From the NCBI RefSeq assembly GCF_037042905.1, contig NC_087250.1:13890001-13954000 (forward strand): a stretch of DNA of 64,000 nt, read 5' to 3'. The notes below the pieces were generated by a model. That model worked only from the letters and a program-made list of their open reading frames with translations, ran no database searches and had not been told where the DNA came from. This stretch comes from Lytechinus pictus. Taxonomy: Eukaryota. Made by a program: the position numbers and the translations under genes. Below are positions 2,956-36,300 of this stretch, one piece after another. Position 1 is the stretch's first letter; each line of letters starts with the position of its first letter.

Positions 2956-2981
2956 GTCCAATGTCAAGCAAACCTACATCT

Positions 2982-4531: not shown

Positions 4532-4912
4532 CCCCTTTCATAAACCCAATTATGCGGATAATATCCGCATAATTTGGTTGTAAAATCGGAGCGGGACCAG
4601 AGTTATCCGCATTATTTCGATGCTGCAATTATCCGCATAATAGCGGCATCGGAACCAGATTTTGACTTTATGAACGCATTTCCAAAGTAATGTGGATAAT
4701 TGCCATGGATGCGGTCACAAAGGTCACCCTTTTCCAACACAACCCCATCGGAGGGGGCGTGTGCAGTTGCCATGATAATTATCCGCCTTTTTCAGGTTGG
4801 GCGCTCATAAAAAAATAGTGCGGATTATTTTTGGAGTTTGTGAATGCAATTTCTATTGAATTATCCGCATTACTCTTAGGCGGATAATTGGAGGATGGGT
4901 TTGTGAAAGGGG
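4532..4912. mobile_element. MITE flanked by TA
   Basis: ta|cccctttcataaaccca ... tgggtttgtgaaagggg|ta; internal atccgcat repeats. Confidence 0.75.
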
Positions 4913-7900: not shown

Positions 7901-8099
7901 TTGAACTTTTATACCAAGAAAGCAAGAATATAGAATCAATTTGAAAGAATTGGCCATGAGAAATGAGTGCAAACAGCACCTCCTTATCTTGTAGAGAGTA
8001 TGTGTAGCCACTATGGAATAATGTGAAATCGAATCATATTCTTGAGTGGTTTGCAACAAATAGCATCGTGTTTAATTTCCAGATTGAAAAGGTCACAAC

Positions 8100-8390
8100 T
8101 GAGAAGGGATGTTCACACTATACCTCAACCATGAATTATATACTCTGAAAAGAAAGTTTGAACATATATGTACAATAAGAAAAGCATGTTTACACTATAC
8201 CTAAACAATGAATTATATAATCGGAATAGAAAGTTTGAACATACACTGAGAGGGATGTTCACTTCTTGCCTAAACCATATATTATATACTCGGAAAAGAA
8301 AGTTTGAACATACACTGAAAAGAGATGTTCACACTATACCTACAAGTAAACCATGAATTATATACTGGAAAAGAAAGTTTGAACATACAT
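8100..8390. repeat. Degenerate ~60-70 bp tandem repeat
   Basis: gatgttcacacta...gaaagtttgaacata repeated about 4 times. Confidence 0.75.
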
Positions 8391-9264
8391 GTATTAGTGA
8401 GTACACCCCATGCAAAAGTTGTTCCACAATGCTGGTTTTGAATTAAACCTTCACAGAAAATGTAAAATGGACATTGTGTATTAATTCAAAAGAGGCACAA
8501 ACTAGTTACTCACACTTTAGGCTAATTATCCTATTAATTGCTGATTTATGAGAAAATGGTAGCAACAAAAGTGAGTACACTCTATTACTTTGAAATACAT
8601 GTATGATCATATTAGTACTTGTTATGGCAATATTTCAAGCACTTATTCCCAGAACGTTTTCCTTGTGAGGAGCCAACTCACTTTGCATCCTGGAATTCTT
8701 TGAATATCATTTCACCCCTCTATGATGGACATGTTTAATATAGTAGGCCATCTTGTCCTCCATTCCTGCATGACTTCATAATGATAGGTGTGCTTGAGAT
8801 GTGTTAAGGCCACCGCACTTGTTACGACTGGTTCACTGTCCGATTTGGGAACAAATCACATTTTTCTTTATTTCTGAAAATGTGAATGAAAAGTATCTAT
8901 TTGAGGTTCAAATTAACTGTAAAGAATATTGTGTCAAATTTAAAGAGGCACTGAAAACCAGTTATTCACACGTATGCTATTATCAAAATCGCTCATGTGA
9001 GGAAATCGTAGCAACAAAATTTGGATGATCGCAACTCTTTGGGCGAGATGAATACGGCCACCCCCATTCACGGGGACAAAACCAGATTTAAAACATGGGA
9101 TAAGTAGTTATCACTCATGCATATAAAAAGCAAATTTGATAGTGGGCGCAGAAGTTGCTTTGCAAATTATCCAACTCTCCCTGTATTGACTCTAGACATT
9201 AGTTTCTTGATGTGGATGTTGAAATCAAAGTTGACAATTTTTTGTCATTTTTTTTCTTGTTCAG

Positions 9265-9389
9265 GAAATGACACAACCTAGGATGTACCAGGAGCCAGAG
9301 GAAGCCAGACCTACATTATCAAGCAGCGAATTCTTAGAATTATTCAAAGAGATGTCAACAAGACCTGAAATCTATTTCCTACTTGTCAG
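9265..9389 (+). CDS. PLCL2: PLCL exon (EF-hand): [41 protein letters not shown](R)
   Basis: ttcag acceptor, gtgagt donor; [10 protein letters not shown] motif typical of PLCL. Confidence 0.92.
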
Positions 9390-12300: not shown

Positions 12301-15300
12301 TGCAAGAGCAGTGCGCATTTTAGCTTGCATGCAGCTTGAGCGCCGCGATGAGTGAGTGTGCCAAGCATTTTATTATGAAATACTCCTTTTTGGGGAAAAA
12401 TACAGTTTTTTTTATCACAGAATACAGTTTTTCATTCCCAGGGGTTGGCAGGTTTGGGTGTGTGGTTTTGTGGTTGTGAGTGCCTCTATGGCAGCTCGGC
12501 TACAGCCAGGGTATATATCATACCAAATGTTATAAAGCGCAGTAGAGTATATTAACAAAGTAACTGCACTATATTTATGGTCCATATTATTAAGAATTTC
12601 ATAGTATATTAATAATTTGAGAATATTTTCAAGATAATTAGATTAATGATGATTAGAATACTGAAAAATATATAATATAAAAGGAACTTTAATTAGTCCC
12701 TCATTTAATACCAGAAACCCTTTTCATGTTTTTATTAGTATTCCTGACAGATATTGAAATATTTTATATGCCAACCATGATCACAATGATCATCAACATA
12801 CAAGTAAATTATGGTTAAGTGTCCTTAAAGATAATTGGCCAACAATAAACATAAAATAGACTGGCCCGTATTCTGAACTCGGGTTTAAATTAAACCCTGG
12901 TTTATACGTATTTGTGGTTTAACTATGGAGAGCCAATTGGGGCACAAATCCCCTACAGCACACATCCAATTTATTAACTCATTTGAGTATTTGACACTCA
13001 AATTATCCGTTATTGTCTGTGAATGATATGTGAAGTATTTTCCTTCATTATGAAAGCAAAAAGGAAAAAAATAGTAAACATAAGAAGAAATATATTATAT
13101 TTATAAAAAGGATTTTTAAATTGTTGACATCCCATGATTTTAGTACAGAGTTAGACTGTGGTCTATGTTAGACCCGACTTCAGAATACGGGCCACTGTGT
13201 CTATTATTAACATTGTACATGTAATTATTTTTGTTTGCTTCAGATGACTGGCGTAACGAAGGAAAAATGTCTGTCACTCATACAACGCTATGAAGTCTCT
13301 GAGGAGGGTCGTCAAAAGGGATACCTCGGCATTGACGGTATTTATCTTTTTTTTCATTCAAAACTATGAAACCCACCCTACTGAAGTGTTGAACTCAAAA
13401 TCAAGAAAATTAATCATAACTTTGATTTCTAGTCATTTATGAGATATATGTTGGTGTGTGATGAAGATTTATATTTGATTCTATGAAGATACATTAGGAA
13501 TATTGTGCAGGTGTAAAGATAAATGAATAGTTTATGGAATGCAAGAAATCTCCTGCTTTGTGAAATCAGTCTCCAAATTTTCTTGCACTAATGTTTATAC
13601 ATGTAGTTCATGCCTCTTCCATTTATCAAGTTGAGGGGGTGTTTCACATAGATTGATGTCTGACTAATGGCGCAGTAACATTTCTCCTACGGTTGCCGTC
13701 CGGCTAGTCGAAAACAGCCATTTTAATCTTTTTTCTACCAGCTACATGTACATATGAGTGGTTTGAATAAACATAGATAAAATGGCTGTTTTTGACTTGC
13801 CATATGGCGACTGTAGGGGAAATGTGACTGCAGCATTAATATCGCATTTAAATTGAACGTTTGAAGCGTTTATAAAGCGTTTAAGCATTTGGTATTTAAT
13901 CAACACTGCATCAGTACAGTCACATTCAGTTAATCCTTGAAGCATGACTTTCAGTCAGATTTTGATCGGATCAATCATAACTCTTTGTAAGTCGGGCCCA
14001 GAGTACAGTTTTTGTTTAGGAGTTTTGCTGCTATCTTTTAATCACATGTTTTATTTATTCAGTTTTCTTTGAAGCACTACGTGATTTGTTGATGATTTTA
14101 CTATAGGTTTTTATCATCAGAATTTGTTTTTTGTAGGTTTTACAAGCCATCTGTCTGATTCTCTCTTTGGGTTTTTGTTTCCTTTAATGCCTCACAGGCT
14201 TCGCGGGTGGGGGGGGGGGATCGCCACCTATTTGCCCTTATATCATATATTGTGTTTTTTGTCTCACCTGCATAGCAGAGTGAGACTATAGGCGCCGCTT
14301 TTCCGACGGCGGTGGCGGCGGCGACGGCGGCGGCGATGGCGGCGGCGGCGGCGGCGTCAACACCAAATCTTAACCTGAGGTTAAGTTTTTGAAATGACAG
14401 CATAACTTAGAAAGTATATGGACCTAGTTCATGAAACTTGGCCATAAGGTTAATCAAGTATTACTGAACATCCTGCCTGAGTTTCATGTCACATGACCAA
14501 GGTCAAAGGTCATTTAGGGTCAATGAACTTAGACCATGTTGGGGGAATCAACATCAAAATCTTAACCTAAGGTTAAGTTTTTGAAATGTCATCATAACTT
14601 AGAAAATATATGGACCTAGTTCATGAAACTTATACATAAGGTTAATCAAGTATCACTGAACATCCTGCATGAGTTTCACATCACATGACCAAGGTCAAAT
14701 GTCATTTAGGGTCAATGAACTTTGGCCGAATTGGGGGTATCTGTTGAATTACCATCATAACTTTGAAAGTTTATGGATCTGATTCATGAAACTTGGACAT
14801 AATAGTAATCAAGTATTACTGAACATCCTGTGCAAGTTTCAGGTCACATGATCAAGGTCAAAGGTCATTTAGGGTCAATGAACTTTGGCCAAATTGGGGT
14901 ATTTGTTGAATTACAGCCATAAATTTGAAAGTGTGTTGGTCTAGTTCATAAAACTTGGACATAATAGTAATCAAGTATCACTGAACATCCTGTGCGAGTT
15001 TCAGGTCACATGATCAAGGTCAAAGGTCATGTAAGGTCATAGAACTTTGGCCACGTTGGGGGTATTTGTTGAATTGCCATCATATCTCTATAAGTGTATT
15101 GGTCTAGTTCATAAAACGTGGAAATAAGAGTAACCAAGTATCACTGAACATTTTGTGCGAGTTATAGTAGTTTTCAAAATCAGCACTGCTGCTATATTGA
15201 ATCGCGTGATGCAGGTGAGACGGCCAGAGGCATTCCACTTGTTTTTCTCCATTTTTCTTTCTATTCTATTGTATGTGAATGTGCCATTTTTAATGTGCAA

Positions 15301-18300
15301 ATAGAGACGATATATATACACCATCATAATGTTATTTTTTTTTGTAGGTTTTACAAGCTATCTATTATCATCAGAATGTGATATTTTTGACAATCTTCAA
15401 CGGAGAGTTTGTCAGGACATGACCCAATCGTTATCTCACTACTTCATTGCTGCTTCTCATAATACGTGAGTATTTAAAGGGCAATCACACATGTTATGGC
15501 GGGGGGGGGGGGGAGGGTACTCGAATTATAATATGATACCTATGTGCCGCACCAAAGTCGGGGGTCGGGGGCTCTGGAACTAAATATTGGTCTCAAAACG
15601 GGGTCTCCGGAATGGCTCTGATCAACGATTGCTAAAAATGCAATGCTGTGAAAAAGGGGGTCTCCAGAACCCATAGATCGTAGGCATAATTGGTAGCGGC
15701 TGTGTAAAAAAACCTGCGTGCGTCTTGCTACATTCATTTCGGGCAAGCTAGCTGCAGGCGCAGGGGAGCTTCAGGGGCCAGTTAAAGTGGGCAATCCCTC
15801 GTATATACCTAATAGCCCTGCGGGCAGGGGAAGGGTGGTGACTTCCCCCTCTACATATACCTGTACTGCTGCAGTGTTTCGTAAGTCATTATTTTTTCAA
15901 GCCTTGCATGTAATTTTAGACTGAATTTGGGACGTCTGGAAACAGGGATAAAAAATTGATGTTACTGTCTGTGTAAGTGACACTTTTAAATTGTATTATT
16001 TATGTTTGTATGACAGTCAAATGATGAAAATGATATTAATGATGGTTATGATAATGATGACAATGACAATAACAATATATGAATGAAGATTTATATATAT
16101 GTTTTCATTTTTTAATGTTGTAGGTATCTAACTGAGGACCAATTGAAAGGACCATCAAGTGTAGCAGCGTATGTGTCAGCATTACAGAAAGGATGCAGAT
16201 GGGTGGAATGTAAGGTTTAGCCCCCGAGTCATGTCAGAATTTTTTTGTTCCAGAATTCACCGGTGTTGCGCCGGCCGGAATCTGGTGTCCCGATAAATGA
16301 ATTCGCGAACGGGGAAGCACTTAAGCACTTTCTTGGAAACAGATGCAGGGTTGACTGGCGGGATGGGAAAAAACTTTTTCCAAAGTTTGCTGAAAATTTC
16401 AAGATTTAAATTATCACATAAATATAATAATTAGAGATTAATATAGCGCACAAATCTGTCGGTAATGACAATCAAGGCGCACAATTAACATAATATGCAT
16501 GAAATGCCTATCTGTTTTGCATATTATTTTTATAAATACTACTAAATAATGACGAATACCACATTCTTTCTTCGCTCTGAATATCTGATTAAAAAAAAAA
16601 ATTCAGTTGATAGTAGGGAACGTTCAAGCACTTGATCAAGGTAGTTGTCATTGGTAGTAGTGTGGGGCACTCAGAGACATTGTATTAAGCGCTTTACAAA
16701 TGTTGCAAATTAAAATTCATTGAATGCCGAAGCACTAGATGAAGGTCGTCATGCCAAATTCAGGGTACTTGTAGCACTTTCAAGCATAATGCAAAATGGT
16801 GCATATTGTTATTGTTAAATATTGTTTTGTGTGTTTTATTTCAGTGGATGTATGGGATGGAGGCAATGATGAACCTATAATCTATCACGGCCATACACTC
16901 ACATCTAAAATACTCTTCAAATCAGCTATAGAAGCGATTAATCAACATGCGTTCGAAACATCAGAGTGAGTATTCTGTCTAGTTTGGTCTACTTCCGAGA
17001 CATTGATGAAATCCATTTGGTATCATGTTCGCCACCTAATCGTGAGCTTCAAGATCAACACCAAGACCGAAATTAAAATCACAATTTTCCCCAACCCTGG
17101 GGGTTGGCGTTAGTGAATGGGCAAATTACATGTAGATCGTCAACACCAGCTGTAATGCTTGCTTGTATGTTTGCGACAATCAACAGACCTCGGCTGAGGG
17201 AACATGGTCTGTTGATTGTTGCAAACATACATGTGACAGTAATGCACGCTGCAAACTTGGTTACGCATAGTGCTGGTGTTATCGGTGAACATGCGATGGA
17301 CAAAATCATATGGATCCAGAATTGCATGATGAATGGATCAAAAATTGCACGGATGATGATGTCATTGTAAAATGGGCTGAATGATCGATATCAAACAACC
17401 AATCGAATGACAATGACCATTCTAGACGTCATGTAACATAGAACAATGGTCTATCATATCAATTACCTGTCAAGCTGCATTGTCAGCACGTACATGTAGC
17501 TGGTTTCATCTTCAAACCATCTCTTGTGGGGACATCATGGTCAAGTGGTTATGACTCTTGTCTTCCAATCTGAGGGACGTGGGTTCGAATCCCAGCCATG
17601 GCATGTTTTCCTTCAGCAAGAAAGTTACCCAAATTGCGCTGCACTCAACCCAGGTGTGGTGAATGAATACCCATTAGAAGGGCCTAAATGAGAACAGATT
17701 TCAGAACTGAACGGGGTACCCCGTGTAAATATACCGTTATTATTATTATTGATATGATCTCTTTAGGTATTCAGTGATTGTATCGATTGAGAACCACTGC
17801 AGCATTGATCAACAGAGAGTAATGGCCCACTATATCAAGTCTGTGTTTGGTAACAAGCTTCATAGTGAGACGATAGATGATTTGATCTCTTTTACTACAT
17901 TCTTTTGATCTCTTACTAGGTATCCAGTGATTGTATCGATTGAGAACCATTGCAGCGTTGATCAACAGAGAGTAATGGCCCATTATATCAAGTCTGTGTT
18001 TGGTGACAAGCTTCACAATGAGCGTATCAAGGTGATTTCATCTCTGTACTACATTCATTCGATCTCTTACTAGGTTTCCAGTGATTGTATCGATTGAGAA
18101 CCATTGCAGCGTTGATCAACAGAGAGTAATGGCCCATTATATCAAGTCTGTGTTTGGTGACAAGCTTCACAATGAGCGTATCAAGGTGATTTCATCTCCT
18201 TCTACATTTATTCGATCTCTTACTAGGTTTCCAGTGATTGTATCGATTGAGAACCATTGCAGCGTTGATCAACAGAGAGTAATGGCCCATTATATCAAGT

Positions 18301-21300
18301 CTGTGTTTGGTGACAAGCTTCACAATGAGCGTATCAAGGTGATTTCATCTCCTTCTACATTTATTCAATCTCTTTAGGTTTCCAGTGATTGTATCGATTG
18401 AGAACCATTGCAGCGTTGATCAACAGAGAGTAATGTCCCATTATATCAGGTCTGTGTTTGGTGATAAGCTTCACAATGAGCGTATCAAGATGATTTCATC
18501 TCTTTCCTACATTTATTCGATCTCTTTAGGTTTCTGATGATTGTATCGATTGAGAACCATTGCAGCGTTGATCAACAGAGAGTAATGGCCCATTATATCA
18601 AGTCTGTGTTTGGTGACAAGCTTCACAATGAGCGTATCAAGATGATTTCATCTCTTTCCTACATTTATTCGATCTCTTTAGGTTTTCAGTGATTGTATCG
18701 ATTGAGAACCACTGCAGCGTTGATCAACGGAGAGTAATGGCCCATTATATCAGGTCTGTGTTTGGTGACAAGCTTCACAATGAGCGTATCAAGATGATTT
18801 CATCTCTTTCCTACATTTATTCGATCTCTTTAGGTTTCCGATGATTGTATCGATTGAGAACCATTGCAGCGTTGATCAACAGAGAGTAATGGCCCATTAT
18901 ATCAAGTCTGTGTTTGGTGATAAGCTTCACAATGAGCGTATATAGATGATTTCATCTCTTTACTACATTCATTCGATCTCTTTAGGTTTCCAGTGATTGT
19001 ATCGATTGAGAACCATTGCAGCATTGATCAACAGAGAGTAATGGCCCATTATATCAAGTCTGTGTTTGGTGACAAGCTTCATAGTGAGACGATAGATGAT
19101 TTCATCTCTTTACTACATTTATTCGATCTCTTACTAGGTTTCCAGTGATAGTATCGATTGAGAACCACTGCAGCGTTGATCAACAGAGAGTAATGGCCCA
19201 TTATATCAAGTCTGTGTTTGGTGACAAGCTTCACAATGAGCGTAGCAAGATGATTTCATCTCTGTACTACATTCATTCGATCTCTTTAGGTTTCCAGTGA
19301 TAGTATCGATTGAGAATCATTGCAGTGTTGATCAACAGAGAGTAATGGCCCATTATATCAAGTCTGTGTTTGGTGACAAGCTTCACAATGAGCGTAGCAA
19401 GATGATTTCATCTCTGTACTACATTCATTCGATCTCTTTAGGTTTCCAGTGATAGTATCGATTGAGAACCATTGCAGTGTTGATCAACAGAGAGTAATGG
19501 CCCATTATATCAAGTCTGTGTTTGGTGACAAGCTTCACAATGAGCGTAGTAAGATGATTTCATCTCTGTACTACATTAATTCGATCTCTTTAGGTTTCCA
19601 GTGATAGTATCAATTGAGAACCATTGCAGTGTTGATCAACAGAGAGTAATGGCCCATTATATCAAGTCGGTGTTTGGTGACAAGCTTCACAATGAGCGTA
19701 GCAAGATGATTTCATCTCTGTACTACATTCATTCGATCTCTTCAGGTTTCCAGTGATAGTATCGATTGAGAACCATTGCAGTGTTGATCAACAGAGAGTA
19801 ATGGCCCATTATATCAAGTCTGTGTTTGGTGACAAGCTTCACAATGAGCATAGCAAGATGATTTCATCTCTGTACTACATTTATTCGATCTCTTACTAGG
19901 TATCCAGTGATTGTATCGATTGAGAACCACTGCAGCGTTGATCAACAGAGAGTAATGGCCCACTATATCAAGTCTGTGTTTGGTAACAAGCTTCATAGTA
20001 GGACGATAGATGATTTCATCTCTTTTACTACATTCTTTTGATCTCTTACTAGGTATCCAGTGATTGTATCGATTGAGAACCATTGCAGCGTTGATCAACA
20101 GAGAGTAATGGCCCATTATATCAGGTCTGTGTTTGGTGACAAGCTTCACAATAAGCGTATCTAGATGATTTCATCTCGTTCCTACACTTATTTGATCTCT
20201 TACTAGGTTTCCAGTGATTGTATCGATTGAGAACCATTGCAGCGTTGATCAACAGAGAGTAATGGCCCATTATATCAAGTCGCTGTTTGGTGACAAGCTT
20301 CACAATGAGCGTATCAAGATGATTTCATCTCTTTACTACATTTATTCGATCTCTTAATAGGTATCCAGTGATTGTATCGATTGAGAACCATTGCAGCGTT
20401 GATCAACAGAGAGTAATGGCCCATTATATCAAGTCGGTGTTAGGTGACAAGCTTCATAGTGAGATGATAGATGATTTCATCTCTTTACTACATTTATTTG
20501 ATCTCTTACTAGGTATCCAGTGATTGTATCGATTGAGAACCATTGCAGCGTTGATCAACAGAGAGTAATGGCCCATTATATCAAGTCGGTGTTAGGTGAC
20601 AAGCTTCATAGTGAGATGATAGATGATTTCATCTCTTTACTACATTTATTTGATCTCTTACTAGGTATCCAGTGATTGTATCGATTGAGAACCATTGCAG
20701 CATTGATCAACAGAGAGTAATGGCCCATTATATCAAGTCTGTGTTTGGTGACAAGCTTCATAGTGAGACGATAGATGAGGATCTTTCATACCTTCCTTCA
20801 CCTCATCAACTGAGAGGCAAGATTCTTATCAAGGTTAGTATAATAATGATAAAGCAATATTGACTGGCCTCGGGGCGATACAACATATATCGCCCAAACT
20901 AGATTCGTCTACGACTCGGGCGATATCAATTTAGTGAGGGCGATATATGTCCTTTCGCCCCGAGGCCAGTCAATATTGCTTTTATTAACCAAAGCAGACA
21001 TCTAGAGCAAAAATCGCTAATATTTAGATATTTTAGAGTTTAAGAATGAGAATCTAGTTTACCATGTTGAGCAGACTGGGCCTCTGAATATTACCATTGT
21101 GACGTAAATGAAATGACGCGTCCCTGGCCTAGGGACACGGTATCCAGCGTCTCAACTTGATTTACATTGTGACGTATAGCACTGCGCGGTTCAATGACGC
21201 GTACAAAATTGTGTAGAATACCCGGATGTTAGCTCTGCCTTATTGCCCGCTACATTTCCACGCATTTTCTCATTAACTCTCCTGAGCGGGCAATAAATTG

Positions 21301-24300
21301 GGCCCGTGGATAAACAATTGGAAATTTATTGACCGGCCATTTGATCCCAGTCTTAAGCAGGCAACAATGTATTAAAGTTGACCTGCTCAGATGTCTGATA
21401 TGGTTAATAATAAGTAATAATAGTAATAGTAATATCAGTAATAATGATGATGATGATGATAGTAATTAGGCCTTGGAGTGAACATCGATTGATAAATTGT
21501 TTGAATGGCTTGCCGCCGACTGCTATTCGATTAGCAAAATTTTTACTGTTCGAATGTTTGGCAGATCCCAATTAGACACTTGGGATAACTCGAATACTAC
21601 AGTAACAGTAACAAAAGGCCAAGATAACAATGATAACAATTGTTTTTACATACTTTTACATACAGGTTTAAAACAATGTTACCGAGGTAATTTGTCAAAA
21701 ATGAACAATGATTTATCACATTCCCAGGTAAACACCAATCTGAAAGAGCTCCGAAAATATTAATCCCACCTGTACCGTCCTTTTCCTCGATACACAATGC
21801 ATGTTGTCTGCATACTTAACAGTTAAAACAGAAAGTACACACACAAAAAGCTCACTTGAGCTGATACGTGATTGGATCCTTCCGACGGCCAACAAAACTT
21901 TATGGGAGACAAAGCTGGAGGAGAAGCCACGTGGATCCACTGATCTGTACAATTCAATTCAACCCACGTGCTTCCCATTATCAGGAAAAGTCATGACTTC
22001 AGAAACAAATTGACCCCCCCATCTCTCTGTGTGTGGATCTGTGTGCGAGAGAGAGAAAGAAATATAGGGGCTGGGAGCAAGAATTCCTTTCATGTTTCAA
22101 AGCAAAGCAGTTAGCCCCCCCCCACACACCAACTTTCCCATAACTTTCCAACACACACAGTCACTAACATACCAGGGGCCCGTTTCATAAAGAGTTACAA
22201 CTGTTGTAACTTTGCCATTATGGCAACTTCCATGGCAACCTTGATTATGATTGGCTGCTGAGCCCTGTTACCATGGTAGTTGCCATAATGGAAAAGTTAC
22301 AACAGTTGCAAGTCCTTTATGAAACGGGGCCCCTGATGTTTTTGACTAGTCTCCCAAAATAGACCCAGTTGTAGGTTCAAATGATAAAAGTTTTGTAATT
22401 TTGAAAGGTATTCTAAATGAAATATATTTTGCAAAATACAGTGTGTAGCATCATGTGCAGTGCCACAGGTGGGGGGGGGGGCATGGTGTGGGTAAGGAAT
22501 GAATTTTACTATCAGCCAATCAGATTGAAGGATTTCAGTAACTTTTAAATTTATTTGTAAATTTTTTGCAGGGTAAGAAGCTAGCTGATGATGTAGAAGG
22601 AGATGAAGGGGAAGTCACTGATGAAGATGAAGGATCGGATACAGATAGAGGAAAGAAGATAAAGAAGGTAATTATCAATCATCATATTGCAGGGCTGCCG
22701 AGCCTCTCAGAAAATTGATTTTTGAGTGAAAATCTGCAGATTTTCAACATCTCCCTGATTCATACGTTGGATGATTTCAAGTTCAGTGTTGACCTTTTGG
22801 TGTTGGTGTAAGGTCAATTTTTACATGATTATAGCACCAAACGTAAAATGAACACGGTCCTGAAAAGTCGCTCACTAGTAGAGATGTCAATAATGTGATC
22901 TAGATCAGTTTTACACTCTAAAAAATAGGTTTTGGAGCTAGAGGAAGCAATCCAAATTGTGCTTCCAACCCCAACTCCGGATTTGAAAGCACCCATTGAT
23001 TTCTTTCAATAGATTGTGTGTAATTGAGAAAGATATCTCTCCTTCCTCTGTAAGGGGTAAGGGTTCAAATCCCACCACAGCACAGAGAAAAGTAGATTAA
23101 ACGCTAAGGTAATTATCAATTATCATTCTTGGACTGCCAGGTCTCATAATCAAGCATTCTATTTATTAATGATAATAATAATAATACTAACATTTGTAAG
23201 GTTCTTAATGTAGATGTTTCAAAGCACTCAATTTTCTGGCTTATTATTGATTACTGGGGATGAAAGAACAAAAGTGTAATTAATAAATGAATAAATCACC
23301 AAGTCTCAGATTATAAAGATTAAAATTGACGATAAAAAATTGCTTTTTGCGTATGCAAAATATCAAGAATTCATATTCTTTATATGAGGAATCATTTGTG
23401 TTGTTAACAAAAGGCGATTCTTGACATCAACGAATGGGATCAAGAAAACTGCATGCCATGGTCTACCTTTGTCGGCATATTTAAGGCCAAACGTTCTGAT
23501 GCGACAGTTTCTTTACACATAAAATTATGATTCCGTAGAATGCAAGACTTACCTCTTTTTATCACTCTGGTTAATTTATACATTCCTCTTTGTTTTCTTA
23601 TCTTTCTCATTTAAGTTTATTTTATTTGGTGTAAATGTGTGTATTCCTCTTCATTTTGTCATCTTTCTCTTGTAAAGTTGTTTCATTTTGTGTTTATAGG
23701 CTCGATTTTTCTCATTCCGGAGGGATGACGACCCTGATCTCAAGGTCAAAAGGTTAAGGGATAAATTGACCTTGAAAGAAATAATGGCTTCTATAGCCAA
23801 GGTATAACGGTTTGATGTTTTTTTTTAGCGCATCCTCTTTCTGCCATTTTGCCTTCATAAATTGACCTTGGAAAAATAATGGCTTCTGTAAAGCCATTCA
23901 GTTTGTCTCTTTCTACCATTTTTTGCATTCATTTTGCTAACGTTTTGAACTAACACTTGTATTTTTCATACATTTATTAGATGTTTCAACTTCATTTAGA
24001 GCTGACAGACTGGGGCATAAAATCATTGGTTTTGGGAACATTTTTCTATTAATTAAATCTTTCTGCTGGGTAAAAAAAATGCATTTGAAAATGTAGCGAG
24101 TGCAATTGCTCCATTAGAACATTTATTATTCAAGGTAAATGATGTTGTGTTATGAAATTTTGATTTAAGTTCATCTAAATATGTTAAATAAATGGTGTTA
24201 GACTGAGTGAAAATAAGACAAAATGTCCCTTATTGTGAATAGAGGTTTATTTCTAACTCTGGGGTACATTTCATAAAGGACTTCCAACTGTTGTTGTGGC

Positions 24301-27300
24301 AACAGGGCTCAGCAGCCAATCAAAATCAAGGTCACCATGGTAGTTGCCATAATGACAAAGTTACAACAGTTGCAAGTCCTTTATGAAATGGGGGCCCTGG
24401 TCTGCGCATGACCATTACATTAGAAATTTCAAACAGTAAAGATTAAAATTGACAGCACATCAGGGCCCCGTCTTACAAACAGTTGCGATTGATCCGATCA
24501 ACCACAACTATGGACGGCCAGCAACGTCAACATCTAAAATGCAAATTTGTTCAAAATATTTTCTAGATATGATGTATATTTATGTGTTTCATTCTTTTGA
24601 AGATTCAGAGTGTTTCTCATTGTTTACCAAAGATAATTTCCTGTAGAAAAAAATTATGGTGTGGGTGGATTTCCATACATTTGAGATTGATTGGATCAAT
24701 CGTAACTCTTTGTAAGACAGGGCCCTGGTGCTCGATTCATCCATAACTGTTTGGGAATGACAATAAAGCTTGGGAAAGGGACCACAGTGAATATTAGAAG
24801 CATACAGTTTTACTTCATTCTGTCATTCTTCATTCTTGGTCTAGTGGTTCTGACTCTCGCCTTTCAAACAGAGAGTCGTGGGTTCGAATCCTAGCTATGG
24901 CGTGTTTTCCTTCAGCAAGAAATTTATCCACACTTGGCTCCACTCGACCCAGGTGAGGTAAATGGGTACCGGCAGGAAGTAATTCCTCAAAAAGCTGTGA
25001 GCACCAGAATCGGTAGACTAGCTTAGGCGGGGTAATATAGGAGTGCCTTGAGCACCTAGCAAGGTGGATACGTGCGCTCTACAAATTCTATATTTTATTT
25101 CTTTTTTTTTTTACATTTCTGGTTTACTTTAATTTAGCTCAGAGTTAGACCAAAGTCTAAGTTAAACCAGGCTTCGGAATATGGGCCAATGAGTATAGCC
25201 TGAGTGGAAGTTAGACAAAATGATAAATGAGCTAAATGGCAATTAGACAATATTAATAATCATTAACATTATTTGTATAGTGCTTATCACAAAACATTAA
25301 AGCGCTTAGGAAAAAATAGAAAGAGAGTTGGAATTTCAGCAAAAAATTTAAGTAATTGAATAGTTCACAGCGGACTATAGACAATTGAGGGGCTGCATAA
25401 GCAAAGGGAAAGGCTATTTAATAAAAAAGTAGGTTTTTAGCGTGGATTTGAATTTCTCTATTGAATCTGTTTCATACTTTGTAGTAGATTGTTCCAGAGT
25501 TGAGGGGATGCGGAATAAGAAGATGATTTAGTAAACAATTTGGTTGTAGATGAACTGGACCTAGGGGGTGTTGCAAGAAAATATTTGCAATCAATTGCAA
25601 ATTACAGTTGTAAAGTTATGAGTGATCAATCAATTTTAACGAAGCAAATTGATGGATGTTGATACAAGAAGCACACTGATGATCAATGGCAAATTTTCCA
25701 TTAATGGCAAGAACTATGATTGATTTGGGGATCTAAAATTGACTTGCGATCGATTGCAAGTTTCCTGCAATGCCCCATTAGACCATGTGACACATGTGCT
25801 GGTGATTATAGTCCTGTTAGACATAAGAGAATTAGCTTTATAGCTAGGCATTATACACCATCAAATACATGATCAGAAAATGATCTAATGGATCACATGG
25901 TCTAGTGGGGGTATTGCAAGTTTCTTGCAATACCGATTAGACCATGGCCCCGTCTTACAAAGAGTTACGATTGATCCAATCAATCATAACTCTATGGAAA
26001 TCCATCACGGTCATAATTTTTTCTACAGGAAATTTGCACAATGTCTTTTGTAAACAAAGAGAAGCACAGTGAATTTTCAAGACAACGATGAATGCATGAA
26101 TATACATCATGCTAGAAAATATTTTGAACAAACATGAATAATACATGTAGATGTTGACTTTGCTGGCCGTCCATAGTTGCGATCGATCGGATCAATCGCA
26201 ACACTCTGTAAGATGGGGCCCATGTGACACGTGTGCTGGTGATATATAGTCTTGTTTAGACATTAGAGAACTAGCCAAGCCAGGCATTGTACATCATCAA
26301 CACTTATATGATCAGAAAACGTGATACCAATCCACAGATCTTGTTGAGTCATTCTCTCTTAAAACTTAAAAGGGAGGCGCGATAGCTTAGTCGGTAGAGC
26401 GGGGGTTTCGGATTCGGTGACCCGGGTTCGATTCCAACTTGGTGCGCTAGTGTCCTTTGGTATTAAAGGTATTAATCCTCATTACCAGGTCCCTCAGAGA
26501 AGACCTTAAGCCGTTGGTCCTCTGGTTGCCTGCTTACAAGCATTCATGCTTTCGTAGTAATCAGGTAAAAAATTACTACCATCATAACCACCATCATTGC
26601 CATCCCAAATAGGACTTGATTCTTAGCAATATTTGTGTCCTTTCCTGTAGTAGCTGCTTTGCCGTGTGAATCATTTTTTTTTCATCCTAACCTAGAAGGG
26701 ACGCTTGCCAAAAACGCCCTTTTTCACGATAGGGCAATCACTGAATTTTTTGGGGGCTATTTTTTTTCATTTCAAGGGCTGCTTTTTTAAAAAGCTCCAA
26801 GCAAGTATGGGGTAAAAACAAATAATGCTATTCTGCCGTAAAATATTGATTTGCTGAATATTCTTGACTATTTGTGGTAGAATTGGGGGAGACTGTCTCT
26901 TGAAAAGAAGGTCATTTGAAAGCACTCTATCTGGGTGATTTTAGGGGCGATTTGGGCTATGATGTAGGCAAGATCACCTGCTATGGCCACTCTCAGCTGT
27001 TTCCTTATAAAGTGTGCCAAAACAACAGGGCGCCGTCTTACAATGAGCTATGATTGATCCAATCAACCAAAACTATGGAAAGCCAGCAATGTCAACATCT
27101 CAAATACATATTTGTTAAGAATATTTTCTATATGTGATGTATATTCATATATTCATATTTTTCTTGACAATTCAATGCGCTGCTCTTTGTTTACACAGGA
27201 CATTGTTCAAATTTCCTGTAAAAATTGTTATGACAGTGATGGATTTCCATAGAATTGAGGTTGATTGGATCGTTCGTAACTCTTTGAAAGATGGGACCAA

Positions 27301-30300
27301 GGCCTTGTTAATAATTGGTTGATTTTATCTAGTAACTATGCACGCTCTAAAAGGGATCAAATAGTAGTAGTCAACCGGTCATAGAAAATACATCCTGGCG
27401 AAAGTAGTGTATTCTGCATGGATAAAAAGATATGTAGAGCGGTGCTCAAAAGTTAGTGAACCCCACCAGAAAATGAATATTTGAAGTGTTCAAATTCTGC
27501 CATATTTTAGATATTTTATTGTAAACTCAGATGATAAAATATTTCACTCAATAAAGTTTGTTTACTCAGATGATGAAATATTACACTTTTTAATAATAAA
27601 GTTTGTTTCTCTGGGCTCGCCAAACCTTGTATTATTGTTGTCTACATTCAATACTCTGCATGAAGGAGTGCATTTTGTGGTGGGGATCACTGACTTTTGA
27701 GCACAACTGTATGTGTTTAATTATGTGACATTTCTTTGACTTCTGGCATATCAAGTGTTTTGGTACGAGGTATGTAATGTAACAGTCAACCTATGCAATA
27801 TGATCAGATACCTCTACACTTCTGGTATATACGTGGGCAAATGGAATTCCTTTTGTATTGACATATGTGCTGGTACATACACATATACTTAGACTCAAAT
27901 GGAAGAAGTCAAGAGAGAGACCTTTTATATATATATATTTTAGCAATTTCTGGATCAAATTCGCATAAATGTATTGTAATTCTGCAATATGAACTCGATT
28001 CATTTCAGCTGCACCTATAGTTATTAAAATAACTGAAGCCCCATTCCTTTCATTTTACTATCCTTTCTGTTAAATACAGGACGTTCCTTTTCTATTTAAT
28101 CTACATGTAAGCCTAACCTCTCTTATCAAATCAGTAATATTTGGCAATGCATGATAATGCAGGAAATCTAAAGGTATCACAGGTCATAAATGTTTATTAA
28201 AAATATTTTTCTGCTGGTATTTATGATGTTGTTTTTGTCGCAGCCAGAAGGTTTACAAACGTAGGATAATTGGATCAGTGATCATAATAATAATAATAAT
28301 AATGTAACTTATGAAGTGCCAAAATTCACTCAGTAGAGAGCCCAAGGATATAAGGATTTAAAGGAAAAGTTCACGCTGATAAATTGGTCTTGATAGAAGC
28401 AGAAAAATGGAAGAAATATTTGGTGGGGGTTTGATGAATGTTTGTCTAAAGAATGATAATTTATGTCTTTAAAAGTTTGATTATGTGACGTCACAGATGA
28501 GCAGCTCCTCCTTATATTGTATGATATTGATTTTTTTAAAAGGCAGTTTTCCAAAAGAATTTAAAATTGTTTTATTTGTGGGTTAACCCTAAAAGGCCCG
28601 GGGGGGGGGGGGGGGGGCGGAATCCGCCTCCCTCAACATATTTCGCGATTAATCCGTCGCGCGAAATTTTTTCAACGCGCCGCTCGCTGACTTTTTACTT
28701 TCAAGTCTCACGCAACTTTTGAGACCAAATTTGCGATGCCCGGGTACCGGTTAGGAATTTATGCAACATTATGTAAGTGCATGTCAGACCCAAAATTTCT
28801 CAAAAACGTGAATTCATGTACAAATCCAATGCAAATTGTGTATTTAGCCAAAATTTATTAATGTATCATTATTTCTACTTTTATTGATAAAAAATAATTA
28901 ATTTTGTCTTGTTTATGATCAGAATTAAGTCTGCAACAATTTCCATAAAAAACAAAAACAAAGAAATACATAAGAAATTAAAAAAACAATAAAATACATA
29001 AGAAAAAAATTGCGATACCAATTTTTTTTATGTACGTTTGATCAGAATCCTACAAAGAGTCTGTGAATAAAAAATTTGCAATTTTGGGGCCATAGTAAGT
29101 TAATTAGAGCAAATGTTTTATTTCATGCATAAATTAGCATAATTAATTCATTAAAAAAAAATCTTATTTTTTCAGAAAAATTAATCATACAGCCTTGTAG
29201 ATTTTATTGCACACTACCACTGTGCAAATTTTCGCGGCGCCCTTGCGATCGACGGCCGAGATCTCAGGGGGGGGGGGGGCGGAATCCCCCACCCTCCTCG
29301 GCTGTGAGATGGGTACAAATAATCCGGCTCTTTTAGGTTTAATATATCATCAGACACATCATTCCAGTTACCCTTCTTGTATAAAAGAATTGTCTTAAGT
29401 TTGTTCTGATCCCATTCCGCATAAGGGAGACCTTTGAAGGACCATTGAAAGACCAAACATTGGCGAGGTCTTAAAGCAGTCTCCAAGATCACTGAAATTT
29501 GTCATCTCTGGAATGGTTCTGAAAGACCCCTCAAAGAACTCTGAAAGACTGATTGATAATTCTTGTCTTACTGGGCTTAGACTAGTCCTATAGAGATCTT
29601 TCAATGGTCTTTCAGAGATCTTTTATGCAACAAGTGATCTTTCAGTATTTTTTCCATGGACTTTCCTGGTCTTTAAAGATCTTTCAATGAATCCTTTAAT
29701 GATCTCTCAGTGATCTCCACAAAAATCTTTAGAGACTGTTTAAACAGGGAAGTGTTATAGACTTCCCTGGTTTAAAGATCATGGAAAGACTAATAAGAAC
29801 TTTGAAAGATCATCAAGAGACTGCTGAAAGACCATCAAAAGACCAGTTTCCTGAAAGGCCGCTGATAGACTGTTTTGAACTGTTTCAAAAAGTTTTGGAA
29901 ATCATGAAGGCCACGAAGAACACTGACAGATCAATCAGGAATTATGAAAGACCTCAGATACTTTTGAAAGTTCATTGAAAGACCTTTGAAAGATCAAGCA
30001 AGTTTCATGGTCTTACAGACAGTGGTCTTTCAGATGTCTTGTCTTCTGTGGAATGGGGGTTTTCATCATGGTCCATTGAAAAGATGGAATGTATGGGATT
30101 GTTATTATATGATATGTGAGGAGCAGCTCGCATATGACATCAAAATTAAAAACTTTATTCAACCTCTCTTAGTGGGGAATTTTCATAAAACCTTCACCAA
30201 TATTTTTCTCCAATATTTCTGCTACCACCAACTAAAAAGAAAAAACAATTTCTATTTTTCCTCCTTCTCTCCTACAGTTAACATGACCAATTTATTTGAC

Positions 30301-33300
30301 GTAAAAAAAATATTTTTCCTAATCTAAATTTTGATTTTTTTTTTTCAAGTTTGAGTTCAGTTTTTGATTGCATGTGAATGAATTCAAGCATGTAGACCAG
30401 TGTGGGTTTTAAATCATTGAAAAATCAAACAAGCATGACTTTGAATAATTATTTTCAAATGATGTTACTCTTAAATGGGAATACAGTATTATGAGGTTGG
30501 TACATACATTATATATGTCATGAATATTGAAGAAAAAAGCTGAAAGCTAGCATTCCGTAGACGACCAAACTTCAGGTTTAATCTTTAGTTAAACTTTGGT
30601 TAAATTATCAAAATATTCTTCTATAACTGGAGATAAAGTTTTATCATGCTTCTTTCTTTTTGGAGAATTAAAGTAGAAAACTGGCTTTCTACCATTTACA
30701 TGTTTTTTTTAATTTGTGTTATTAATATTATTATCATTATATTCACATCATTGATGAAAAGGAGAGAAGAATTTCATCAGATACGTCAATATGGAATACA
30801 TAGTAGGAACAAAGCATAAACAATTAAAAAAATGTTTGAGGTACAATCTCTCTCGACGGATTTTTTTTTGCCACAAATTTCCAGTTGCTTGTATCTTAAG
30901 ATTATTTTTTATCCAACCATTCATTTGTAAATTGATTAGATTATAATATATTCATTCATAAGGAAAACAATATCTGTGTATTGTTTAGGTGTTGTATGAA
31001 GGGTTTAGTTTGATGTGATGTAGGAGGAAAAAATCTTTTATACCTGTAATCATTGGGTCTGAAAAGTTACTCAATATTTGGAAACTCTAGTTTAAATGCT
31101 CCCCAGGGAGTGGAGAAAGTGAATACGTTGTGTTCAGACCATATGCCATACAAAAACTTCATCAAGATAATTGTACAGTGTTACAAGAAAGTTATGATAT
31201 TTTGAAATGTCACTTATTTTTCACAAAATATGCACAATTCAGTGAGAGGGCCGATGATGTCCCTTACTATATTTGTTTTTTATTGTTTAAATTATACAAC
31301 TTTTCAAATTTTACAGGTCTATTTGACAATAAGGACCAACTTGACTGAAGCATGAAATGTTAAAATAGTGGTAATTTCACTTGGTCATTGAGAAATGAAA
31401 CCTTCGTTTCACAGGGCAATGAGGAGAAAATTAGAATGTTTGATTTGATACACTACAACAGAAATAGTGAGTGGGTGACATCATCAGTCCTCAGTTTTGT
31501 AAAACTAAGGAAAATTTGAAATATGATAACTTCCTTCTTTTTCATTTGATGTTGATGAAATTGTCAATTTGCTTGTTGGATTTTTCTCTTTTTTATTCAA
31601 ATCAACTTTTTGTTGGGGTGGACTTGTCCTTTAATAAGTGTAACTCATTGTGGTAAAGGGCCACGGTCACACTATAGAATTAATTGTTTATATTATCGAA
31701 CCTTTGCCCTGTAAATTTTCTGTGTATCCAGGGCCCGGTCTCACGCTACAAGTAATAATGATTATATTTTCAGATGATGGAGGGAAAAAGAGGCCATTAA
31801 TAAGGGAGTTATAGGACCTGGTTTGACAAATCATATTCTTTGTATTACAGGATGGATTGAAGAAGAGGCCATTAATAAGAGAGTTATCAGACCTGGTTAC
31901 ACTATGCAAATCAATTCGCTTTCCAGGGTTCAACGAAGCAAGACAGAATCGTAAGTAGTTCTCTTTTTTTCACTTTGCATTTTAGGATGACATGTAATTT
32001 TAAAGATAAATACCAGTTGTGGTAACGATTCATAATGAGTTCGAACAGAATCCAATAAAATTTCCACCCAAGTATTTGTTTGTATAAATAAAAAATTGTG
32101 TGCCAATTGACTCTGGAAAACAATGTGTATTTGCTGAGAAATTAGCAAAATAAGCACAGAATTCCTTAAAATGTCAGGTATTTTTCCAAGCAATATTAAT
32201 ACACTGTCCCACATATGCCTTTTTGTGTTAGTTATCATTGGAATTATCGGTTTTCAGCTAATATTTCAAGATTTCACAAAGTATTTCTGAAGGGGTCTTA
32301 GTTTTTAACGTGCTTTGGGTGAAATGATGCATCCAAAATGCACGGCTGGAAAATTGTGTGTTCAAAGTAAAAAAAATAGCATGTGACTTGCGTAAGCACT
32401 GCCTATTGGCTTCATCATTGGACCCATTTTATATTAGTGTTACATAATCTACATGCACATGTTCTTTGGTATATTGGTAGGTATAACTGAAATGGTAAAT
32501 TAATTTTGTTGTATTTGTTTTGTCTTAGAGAGATCCTAGGAGTTATGTTTGTTCTTGGAGAATACAACACGATCATACGAGTGCATATTGTAGATGTAAA
32601 CCTCGATAGATAATTAATTTTGTTGTGTGTGTTTTTGAAAGTGGTACGAGAAGATATTTTGCATGGATTTAAATGTAAATTGATTGTAGATTATGTTGTG
32701 TTTGTTTCTTGTTTCAGAGAGGTACTGGGAGTTATGTTCATTCGTGGAGAACACAGCAGAGAAGTTTGCCAACATGTGTCCTGAGGACTTTGTGAGTCAC
32801 AACAAGAGTTTCCTATCCAGGGTGTATCCTAACGCAAACAGGGTAGATTCAACCAACCTCAACCCGCAGGATATGTGGAATGTTGGATGTCAAATAGGTG
32901 AGTAGGAACAATATTGTAATACTAAACATAATTTCACTCGAAAGGTTCATCTGATTGGTGTGTAGACATGAGAAAACATTCTTTATTCCTTAATCACAAA
33001 AACTTACCTGTTTTTCGGTAAGATTCTTCATGCTGCATCAGCAATAGCGCCAGCTATGAGGGTCTGACGAAGCTTGCTGCCTAGCTAGCGAACGCTTACC
33101 AAAAAACAGGCATATTTTTGCGATTGTGGAATAAAGTACTTTTTCTCATGTTGCCGTGGTTATCCATTGTTTTAAATTAATGAGTCCACTCTTCAAACAG
33201 TTGACTCACGAATAAAATAGCATATCTAACCATGGTAACAGGCGTCAATTTGGCGCACTGTGAAAAAAGCGCGCATCAGCATCAGCATTGGACATTTTTT

Positions 33301-36300
33301 ATACACGCGTCTGATACACGGTAAATTAAGCGTAATTTATACAGGAAATCTGCATAAACCATGGATTCAACCGTGGGTTTTCAAAACCACCTTTGTGAAT
33401 TCGGGCCATTTTGTTTAAATCTTTTAATCAACCCCTTCATGACCATGAAGTTGTCAGCATAATCAGCTGGCGAGAAGAGAATTGAGATGATTTTTTAGAC
33501 ACAGATATTTTGAAAGTGTCTTCACAATTCATTTTCCTTCCTTGGTGTTTATGTTTTAGTCCAAATGAACATTAAAATACAACCCACATTAAAGTTCTTT
33601 TTTTTTTATAAGCCAGACCTCTGAAATTTAACCAATGTCTATAATACTGCTCTTCTTACATTGGTTTTATTAGGTGTCTTTATATTTGGTAAACTGCTGA
33701 TTTGTCTATTGCCAACTTGTTCACTCATCACATGGTATACCTTCATTTAGTCTAATGCCATTCCGTCCATCAACATTTCATCTAACAACCGTTTGGTCCA
33801 ATAACAATTTGGTCCAATAATCACTTCGTCTAATCCCCAGTTCGTCTATGACCATTTTGCCTAATTTTCTTTTCATTCATTTCGCCCAATCAACTTTTTT
33901 CCAATTAGACCAAATGGTTTATGGACTACATGGCTATTGGACCAACTGGTTATTAGACGAAATGGCAATAAGAACGTGTGGATAGTAGACGAATTAATGA
34001 TAGACCAAATGATAGTAGACAAGTTGGTAATGAGATGAATTAGCATTAGACCACTTGGAAATAAACCTTTATATTTCACTTCATGAAAAAGAAATTTGGG
34101 CGTTGCCTTTGAATGTGAAAGTGTGCATATAATTAGATGTTCATATATTTTGTTGTTTTCAGTGGCTCTAAATTACCAGACGCCAGGATTAATGATTGAT
34201 CTCTACGATGGAAAGTTTCAGATGAACGGCAGCTGTGGATATGTATTGAAACCAGCTATCATGAGAGAAGGTGAGCAGAATTCGGTGGATTCACAATACA
34301 GTACGTGATCTATCGGTCGCAGTGGACAGGCCGAAATTCGCAATGCCTTGTGGGAAAAAGTCGACATTTGTTGCACACCCCAGTACTAAAGTGCATGTAC
34401 ATGTATGCGATTATTCAGCATTGGCCGATGGGCTTGAGTGGATATACATGTATGCTGTATACCAGGGTCCATCATTATGTTAGTATAAGAAAAAAGATAT
34501 TTTTTTTCAGATTGAAAAAATGGAGTTACTTTTGAATAAACAATAATCGTTTTATAAATTTACAGCCAAAAAGCCTTAGTTTTTAACTCAAACCTTTCAT
34601 GTTAAGTTTTCAAAGCCTCCATATATCTTACCGTAGCATATCGCCTCAAATTTTGATTGGTATTTTCAGGGATAGCTTATTTTTGACAAAACTCATTTGA
34701 TGTGATCCTTGGAGTAATATCTTTAATCTCTAATGTTGTTAAAATTCAGAGATTATTTTTGAACAAACCAATTTATAAGAGTCTCACTCCAAATCTTGAA
34801 TCTTATTTTTCAGAGATTGCTTATTTCCGACCGAACTCATTTGACTTGATTCCGGGAGTATCGCCTCAGATTCTTCACATCAAGATCATCAGTGGCCAAC
34901 AGTTCCCTAAACCAAGAGGATCAGGATCTAAAGGAGATGTGAGTCTTTCTTCTTATCATTCTTGAACAGCGTAGGAATTACATGAGGGCGACGCTCGATT
35001 TCGCCCCCAAGACAGCCCAAATCACCCCTAAAATTCCCCTGAAATGCATGCTTTGGGGCGACCATTCTTTCTAGAGTCTCTCCAAGATCTGTCGTATCCC
35101 TAAAAAGGACCATGAAAGGATTTCATGACATAACATAAATATTCCACACATATGCGATTTGTGGAATATTTTCCCAAACTCTTGGAATATTTCTGGTATT
35201 CCATTCTGAGCCATCCAATATAATTTAATTATTTGTTTTATTTTTTAGGTGATAGATCCATACATCTCTTCAGAAATCTTTAGCATACCAGCTTTCTGTA
35301 GAGAGGAATAGATGATAATAAACATTATTTGTTTTATTTTGTTTAGGTGATAGATCCATACATCTCCGTAGAGATCTTTGGCATACCAGCTGACTATAGA
35401 GAGGAATAGATGATAATAAACATTATTTGTTTTATTTTGTTTAGGTGATAGATCCATACATCTCCGTAGAGATCTTTGGCATACCAGCCGACTGTAGAGA
35501 GGAATAGATGATAATAAACATTATTTGTTTTATTTTGTTTAGGTGATAGATCCATACATCTCCGTAGAGATCTTTGGCATACCAGCCGACTGCAGAGAGG
35601 AACGCACCAAGACAGTACCTCATAATGGTAAAGTAGTGCTCATAATTCGGATGACCAACTATATAAAAAAAGTATGCATCAAATGATAAATTCCAGACTG
35701 TATCATTTCATGTGCGCAGGCTATATACATCAGGGTTCCGTCTTACAAAGAGTTGCAATTGATCCAATCAAGCGTAACTCTATGGAAATCCATCGGTGTC
35801 ATAATTTTTTCTACAGGAAATTTGCACAATGTCCTTTGTAAACAAAGAGAAGCACAGTGAATTTTCAAGAAAACAATGAATGCATGAAAATACATCATAG
35901 AAAATATTTTGATCAAACATGTATTTTAGATGTTGTCATTGCTGGCATTCCATAGTTGTGATTGATTGGATCAATCACAACTCTTTGTAATACGGGGCCT
36001 TGGGTCCCGTCTTACAAAGATTTGCGATTGATCTGATGAACATCAACCCTATGGAATTCCATCAACAAAAAATTTACACAATGTTCTATGTAAATAAAGA
36101 GGAGCATACAATGTAGAAGATTATTTAAAAAAAAGATGAATGTATGAATATGCATCATTTTGAACAAACCTGCATTTTAGTGCTGGCTATGCTGGCTTTA
36201 CTGGCATTTCATGTTTGTGGTTTATCAGATCAGTTGCAACTGGGCAATTCCATAGAATATGTACGTCCGACCCCCTATATGTGGGACCTTCATAAATGTT

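Follow-up and report, generated by a model that had tools for sequence, protein, structure and literature searches.

Phospholipase C-like (PLCL) proteins of vertebrates, PLCL1 and PLCL2, are also known as PRIP; PRIP is a textbook pseudoenzyme, and pseudoenzymes derive from active ancestors. Here we describe a PLCL gene of the sea urchin Lytechinus pictus, carried on the forward strand of a 64,000-nucleotide stretch of contig NC_087250.1 (assembly GCF_037042905.1, positions 13,890,001 to 13,954,000; hereafter the window), whose product keeps 11 of 11 active-site residues of PLC-delta1. Judged from its sequence, the gene is orthologous to vertebrate PLCL1/PLCL2 and so a PLCL by descent, yet its product lacks the sequence marks of a pseudoenzyme, and we predict as likely that the protein hydrolyses phosphatidylinositol 4,5-bisphosphate (PIP2) to inositol trisphosphate (IP3) and diacylglycerol by the PLC-delta1 mechanism.

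The protein matches PLC-delta1 at an E value of 3e-150. The phmmer alignment to the rat enzyme (1DJG, with PLC-delta1 numbers obtained by adding 132 to the chain index, counted by hand) pairs six of its residues with H311, N312, E341, D343, H356 and E390, and the equivalents of K438, K440, S522, R549 and Y551 sit on matching PLC-delta1 motifs. In the numbering of P0001, the NCBI protein for this gene, the eleven residues are H131, N132, E161, D163, H176, E210, K258, K260, S331, R358 and Y360. The original prediction, made from the letters of the DNA, had named each of them; all are in frame where it placed them, and the match that it drew with PLC-delta1 is borne out by the alignment. Its SIENHC motif at 20687 also proves to be the right copy, being the sole one of 20 that is open through to the donor. 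N312, K438, K440, S522, R549 and Y551 count as further residues of the PLC site. Passages of PMC3195387 list the other five (H311, E341, D343, H356 and E390) as critical in phosphoinositide-specific phospholipase C (PI-PLC), and passages of PMC11209554 describe large effects of mutating either active-site histidine. The loss of H356, joined in PRIP-1 by that of E390, by which the pseudoenzyme is recognized is not found in the window protein, where His and Glu are present. P0001, a 794-residue model, is nevertheless recorded as "inactive phospholipase C-like protein 2 [Lytechinus pictus]", the automatic label that the original prediction had warned would be wrong; since all 11 site residues are present, the label finds no support at the level of the sequence.

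These residues belong to a spliced gene. Twenty-one exons between 9265 and 48698 (Table 1) splice into one open frame, with AG acceptors at all 21 exons and GT donors at all 20 introns, and the codons for VELD and for IKGKK are each interrupted by an intron. Over 793 codons the coding frame holds no stop, against 56 and 59 in the other two frames, so that the exon frame is not due to chance. Residues 2-793 of the spliced protein are identical to P0001, the final two residues and the TGA stop can also be read, and Pfam places the X, Y, EF-hand-like and C2 domains above cut-off (PF00388, PF00387, PF09279 and PF00168). The span first proposed, 15348..32897, does lie inside the gene, but the gene extends far beyond it on both sides. 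Contig sets from four presumed-RNA runs of one study (X1-X4) were compared with 20660-34960. In three of the four runs exons 7, 10 and 12 stand on one contig, 198 and 108 letters apart, precisely the lengths that exons 8-9 and 11 would fill once spliced, and the contigs therefore fit spliced mRNA through the codons equivalent to E390, K438/K440, S522, R549 and Y551; in the fourth run the contigs are fragmented. Six exonic differences can be read in the contigs, four of them silent and two (I-to-V and K-to-R) away from the site residues. A pseudogene, or motifs arising by chance, can be rejected on the strength of the open spliced frame and of contigs that fit the spliced exons.

For the phylogeny, 282 retrieved proteins were reduced to 252 whose X, Y and C2 domains were nearly complete and then, by thinning vertebrate PLCL2, to 182 for FastTree; trees were built on 493 columns (EF-X-Y-C2) from which the 11 trait columns had been removed. 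FastTree puts the window protein within a 74-row PLCL clade (support 99), and IQ-TREE (LG+C20, posterior mean site frequency model) recovers, for 61 rows, a PLCL clade at 100/100 that contains the window protein and from which cnidarians branch first. Within it the window protein groups with echinoids (100/100), echinoderms (100/96) and ambulacrarians (100/99), and PLC-delta/zeta form their own clade (100/98). Approximately unbiased (AU) tests, run on 40 of the 61 rows under LG+G4, reject a grouping of the ambulacrarian forms with PLC-delta/zeta (p-AU 2e-5). PLC-delta identity is thus rejected and the placement with PLCL, as originally proposed, holds in a tree that is blind to the catalytic residues. 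The protein also does not end at C2, as PLC-delta/zeta do: it continues into a PLCL-specific C-terminal domain of about 200 residues (exons 16-21), helical and confidently modelled, which over 186 residues is 41% identical to PLCL1, 37% to penguin PLCL2 and 43% to Nematostella, and which does not occur in the named PLC-delta/zeta rows. This domain has no Pfam match and no usable Atlas match, and the best hit of exon 17 among PDB sequences has an E value of 0.027. That the protein is a PLC-delta or PLC-eta member mislabelled as PLC-like is highly improbable, even though, among solved structures, it matches PLC-delta1 and PLC-zeta best, in lists that hold no PLCL chain; the clade, the AU test and a C-terminal domain 37-41% identical to two vertebrate PLCLs all speak against it, and Strongylocentrotus has a separate gene, P0151, in an eta-like clade of four rows, which we infer to be PLC-eta.

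An intact site is not an oddity confined to this urchin, an explanation that we reject, as it is the rule in the sampled cnidarians, spiralians and ambulacrarians, and most relatives in echinoderms, molluscs and corals have it. Among 132 homologues, the highest-ranking matches of echinoid queries, a histidine stands at the H356 position in 38, of which 32 can be assigned to invertebrates and none to vertebrates; the invertebrates are echinoderms, hemichordates, molluscs, a brachiopod, nemerteans, a polychaete and cnidarians. All 11 residues are present in 31 of these 38, the others being two with Y551F, two with E341D, one with Y551H, one with H311Y/E341A (Lineus) and one truncated sequence. 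The remaining 94 proteins lack H356, and those with a taxon are all vertebrate, none invertebrate. The residue losses ascribed to vertebrates in the original prediction hold true in these sequences: 82 of the 94 carry Thr at H356 (PLCL2), and the other 12 combine Asn or Lys at H356 with Gly or Arg at E390 (PLCL1). The full set is mostly kept in cnidarian, spiralian and ambulacrarian orthologues and cnidarians come first in the clade, so the suggestion that the urchin gene represents a "pre-pseudoenzyme state" fits, and the intact site is a widespread and, as far as sequences can tell, probably ancestral state of PLCL. Two outlying genes may be mentioned alongside: scallops carry a second, fast-evolving PLCL (Argopecten P0143 and members of a Pecten cluster), of which P0143 keeps 11/11, and gar P0136 is a strongly degenerate vertebrate PLCL in which most site residues are gone.

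A 50%-identity library adds divergent PLCL proteins beyond this set. We call a site "broken" where the protein is predicted to be inactive; among broken forms, the parts of the literature available report inactivity for mammalian PRIP only. The lamprey protein has H356N, and that of Ciona savignyi is intact except for K438R. The amphioxus protein keeps H356 and has N312D, D343V, E390D and R549E; Branchiostoma P0134 and P0284 have the most degenerate chordate site seen, despite H356. In mantis shrimp, stick insect and tick the common change is E341K, with H356 retained. As a side observation, E341K in arthropods P0135, P0138, P0141, P0146 and P0163 puts a lysine at a Ca2+ ligand, and leech P0137 has the identical change. 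Caenorhabditis elegans PLL-1 has lost H311, N312, H356 and E390, Toxocara keeps all six core residues, and the sites of leech and of the sponge Sycon are also broken. The residues lost differ from lineage to lineage, parsimony on the 61-row tree calls for at least six changes between intact and broken states, and an AU test rejects the 13 broken forms as one clade (p-AU 1e-52). Because other residues are hit in the broken sites of amphioxus, arthropods, some nematodes, a leech and a nemertean, the pattern is not one switch from invertebrates to vertebrates.

In the X and Y domains, 79 positions reach a conservation of 85% or more among 106 non-PLCL PLCs; the window protein keeps 74 of them, and the outgroup itself has a median of 76 (range 57-79). 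Cnidarian PLCL proteins (median 78, range 78-79, n=4) are as well kept as true PLCs, and they are followed by lophotrochozoan PLCL (median 76, n=18), PLCL2 (median 71, rows 68-72, n=82), PLCL1 (median 64, n=12), nematode PLCL (median 60, rows 60-62, n=3) and amphioxus PLCL (55, n=1). An AlphaFold2 model built from 133 rows reaches a predicted local distance difference test score of 91 and a predicted template modelling score of 0.88, superseding an earlier model from 14 rows (70 on the former scale) that was poor at the active site. It superimposes on rat PLC-delta1 (1QAS_B) over 502 residues with Z 42.5 and a root-mean-square deviation of 2.0 A, and the top VIA match of the structure search is PLC-zeta (Z 44.8). 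A shared fold by itself shows no activity.

Among the 37 residues of the X-Y linker 13 are acidic and 8 basic, in line with autoinhibition. A probable cassette exon at 23700-23801 would lengthen it by 34 residues, about 10 of them basic and 6 acidic by hand count; this exon is without counterpart in P0001, is skipped in the contigs of X1-X3 and has read depth over its bin in X4 only, where the depth may come from repeats.

If the roles generally assigned to the PLC-delta1 equivalents carry over, N132, E161, D163 and E210 would bind the catalytic Ca2+, the inositol 2-hydroxyl would attack the phosphate to give a cyclic intermediate stabilized by H131, and H176 would act as general acid and then as base, protonating the leaving diacylglycerol and subsequently activating water. 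K258, K260, S331, R358 and Y360 would hold the PIP2 head group, and the acidic linker probably autoinhibits the enzyme, with the basic cassette exon possibly tuning that inhibition. We think it probable that PLCL began as an active Ca2+-dependent PI-PLC that was also a scaffold, and that catalysis was lost several times. Relatives known at full length bear a PH domain and a docking motif for protein phosphatase 1 (PP1), KKTVSF, so that the ancestral protein would probably have been enzyme and scaffold together, and the losses would have been separate events in vertebrates, amphioxus, arthropods, some nematodes, a leech and a nemertean. A motif of the form [KR][KR][TS]V[ST]F is present in 10 of the 16 orthologues checked, and in five of these (Diadema, Acanthaster, Apostichopus, Crassostrea and Ciona) it accompanies intact core sites. 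We take this KKTVSF-type motif to be the PP1 site of PRIP, and its coexistence with intact core sites suggests that the scaffold motif predates the loss of catalysis. On balance we lean, by a modest degree, towards a broader proposal: that PLCL is an overlooked class of active PLC in cnidarians, spiralians and ambulacrarians, equipped with a PP1 docking site, in which inactivity arose convergently at least five to six times through different residues and the scaffold role preceded any loss.

Several observations weigh against an active enzyme lost many times over. The set of 132 proteins favours slow-evolving, intact invertebrates because the queries were echinoid. The AU rejection of a single broken clade is partly forced, as intact Toxocara nests among broken nematodes, and the grouping of amphioxus with ecdysozoans (97/87), contrary to the species tree, points to long-branch attraction or hidden paralogy, through which the number of losses could drop. 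The AlphaFold2 model is a match at the level of the fold only, and the upstream part of the window, 1-9264, contains no PH exon. Conservation by itself is no proof: many fish PLCL2 proteins keep 10 of the 11 residues, and PLCL2, which is reported to be inactive, keeps 68-72 of the 79 consensus positions against 74 here. The smallness of this gap is the chief caution, and the case for an active enzyme turns largely on H356. Frequent loss also suggests that animals can do without the catalysis, which might be weak already, and chimera work on p130 reportedly places determinants of inactivity beyond two residues. In one alternative reading the urchin protein would itself be a pseudoenzyme by now, or close to one, its residues retained because they bind PIP2/IP3 and Ca2+ or stabilize the fold, and turnover blocked elsewhere by a locked linker, the C-terminal domain or loop geometry. 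Such a state would agree with the 9-10 of 11 residues that nearly all vertebrate PLCL2 rows retain without reported activity, with the weak selection on catalysis that six or more state changes suggest, and with the five of 79 positions at which the window protein departs from the active-PLC consensus. We regard it as rather unlikely, since H356 is found in all 32 identified invertebrates and in none of the identified vertebrates among the 132 proteins, and since decaying sites tend to decay widely, as in amphioxus (55/79) and nematodes (60-62), whereas cnidarians keep 78-79 of the 79 positions.

Hidden paralogy is the other way to account for the distribution: the intact invertebrate genes and the broken genes of vertebrates, amphioxus and ecdysozoans would be two ancient PLCL duplicates, few losses would be needed, and the urchin gene would be the sister of PRIP and no proxy for its ancestor. 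The position of amphioxus, a bilaterian backbone that is weak (80/90 or open) and the second, divergent PLCL of scallops (P0143) all lean that way. Yet nearly intact Ciona is sister to vertebrates (92/77), intact-core Toxocara adjoins broken C. elegans (100/100), the residues lost differ in each lineage and a single clade of broken forms is rejected, and we consider two ancient duplicates clearly improbable.

Whether the protein is complete at its N-terminus is a separate question. Pfam detects no PH domain in the window protein or in P0001, and the PP1-docking motif is likewise missing from both; Diadema has the two features. Searches of the window with the N-terminal/PH region (tblastn and a hidden Markov model) found nothing, the best model hit having an E value of 8.8. 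Short PH pieces gave 69 matches among 554 candidates, none of them assigned to Lytechinus or Strongylocentrotus. The two genera could make a PH-less enzyme of EF-X-Y-C2 and tail, with an architecture like that of sperm PLC-zeta: their NCBI models share the same start methionine and both lack PH, as does window 1-9264 upstream of exon 1, and no PH-bearing protein from either genus stands among the best 120 of 2419 matches. Against this, the strong phase-0 acceptor of exon 1 falls exactly where P0407, an echinoid-like piece of upstream exon, stops, and contigs extend 148, 486 and 1238 letters farther 5' than exons 1-6 need. A PH piece that is 85% like Diadema (P0375) also exists, and split models do occur, since the PH part of the Holothuria protein is annotated as a separate protein (P0376). 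We judge a PH-less form unlikely: more probably the protein is full-length and its PH exons lie upstream of the window, and the urchin model without PH is probably a limit of annotation.

Among characterized relatives of the urchin protein, PRIP-2/PLCL2 shares the orthologous clade, the EF-X-Y-C2 and C-terminal domains and the acidic linker motif, and the penguin protein is 61% identical to the urchin one in X, 61% in Y, 79% in C2 and 37% in the tail. The urchin keeps both H356 and Y551, whereas all 82 PLCL2 rows carry Thr at the former and often Phe at the latter; PH exons were not seen in the urchin window. PRIP-1/PLCL1 (p130) likewise shares clade and domain set, but where the urchin has His and Glu, each of its 12 rows carries Asn/Lys at H356 and Gly/Arg at E390. 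Rat PLC-delta1 (1DJG/1QAS) is like the urchin protein in all 11 site residues and in fold, but belongs to a separate clade and ends at C2 without the C-terminal helical domain. PLC-zeta, which has EF-X-Y-C2 without PH, resembles the annotated 794-residue urchin model, but falls in a different clade and has a basic linker where that of the urchin is acidic. Passages in the PRIP literature state that PRIP-1 cannot cleave PIP2 owing to two substitutions (PMC4972893, PMC3634480, PMC5650666) and describe it as a PIP2/IP3-binding scaffold for PP1/PP2A/Akt (PMC4972893, PMC3634480). C. elegans PLL-1 shares the PLCL clade with the urchin protein and differs in its broken site; its histidine change is termed "the same mutation" as the mammalian one in a passage of PMC2266627, but as Toxocara keeps the histidine we argue that the two losses are separate.

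The gene has also accumulated tandem copies of its own acceptor-exon junctions (Table 1). In the exon 7 array the last unit alone runs on into the real exon, the units match that exon at 96-109 of 109 letters, and a reading frame entered at any of the 19 earlier acceptors runs into a stop codon within 36-100 codons. The I-to-V allele read in the contigs occurs in all four runs and in 17 of the 19 copies that precede the real exon, a match that hints at exchange between array and exon by gene conversion or unequal crossing-over. A third duplicated acceptor is that of exon 4, about 20 nucleotides of which (15337-15357) recur 1.2 kb upstream at 14127-14147, flanking a repeat-rich stretch. Pfam matches none of five open stretches in introns or downstream of the gene; on the reverse strand, those at 37590-38111 and 46993-47232 look like the ends of non-LTR (long terminal repeat) retrotransposon proteins. 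Downstream of the stop codon one 53-bp unit forms two arrays, at 49831-50823 (19 copies) and 51629-52229 (11.5 copies).

Table 1. Exons and acceptor-exon arrays of the Lytechinus pictus PLCL gene, in window coordinates; residue numbers are those of PLC-delta1.
Feature	Position	Strand	Content
Exon 1 in window	9265..9389	+	EF-hand region start; ATG of NCBI model; probably internal exon
Exon 2	10778..10841	+	EF-hand
Exon 3	13244..13337	+	EF-hand
Exon 4	15348..15465	+	X domain start; H311 and N312 equivalents at 15458-15463 (His CAT 15458-15460, Asn 15461-15463)
Exon 5	16124..16209	+	E341 equivalent 16206-16208
Exon 6	16845..16965	+	D343 equivalent 16847-16849; H356 equivalent 16886-16888 (His CAC)
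Exon 7 array	17756..20767	+	20 units of 151-154 bp: acceptor with ~107 nt from the start of exon 7, Glu390 codon included
Exon 7	20665..20833	+	E390 equivalent 20687-20689 (Glu GAG); K438 equivalent 20831-20833
Exon 8	22572..22667	+	K440 equivalent 22575-22577; acidic X-Y linker
Probable cassette exon	23700..23801	+	102 nt, in frame; insert of Strongylocentrotus isoform P0002 matches
Exon 9	31851..31950	+	Y domain start
Exon 10	32718..32897	+	S522 equivalent 32738-32740; R549 equivalent 32819-32821; Y551 equivalent 32825-32827
Exon 11	34163..34270	+	Y domain end
Exon 12	34814..34938	+	C2 domain start
Exon 13 array	35228..35602	+	4 units of 98 bp: acceptor and exon 13 start; last is the real exon
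Exon 13	35543..35627	+	C2
Exon 14	37119..37265	+	C2
Exon 15	38155..38252	+	C2 end
Exon 16	41222..41323	+	Basic linker; start of PLCL-specific C-terminal domain
Exon 17	42979..43233	+	PLCL C-terminal helical domain
Exon 18	43757..43846	+	C-terminal domain
Exon 19	44754..44810	+	C-terminal domain
Exon 20	45686..45781	+	C-terminal domain
Exon 21, coding part up to TGA	48627..48698	+	C-terminal end

The pattern of intact and broken PLCL proteins is visible in public sequences, and its newest part is the proposed repeated, convergent loss. Full-text searches, with subscription journals, which hold most of the PRIP literature, outside their scope, found no paper on an intact invertebrate PLCL; papers on PRIP are said to contain phylogenetic remarks, so that a prior mention is possible. 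L. pictus is a tractable model, and an intact orthologue makes possible a direct test of what PRIP did before its activity was lost, including the role of a single histidine. Should the protein be active, the label "inactive" would be wrong for dozens of invertebrate genes, and IP3/Ca2+ signalling in sea urchins, molluscs and corals would gain one more candidate enzyme. Repeated loss through different residues would, in turn, offer in PLCL a clear-cut example of pseudoenzymes formed by convergence.

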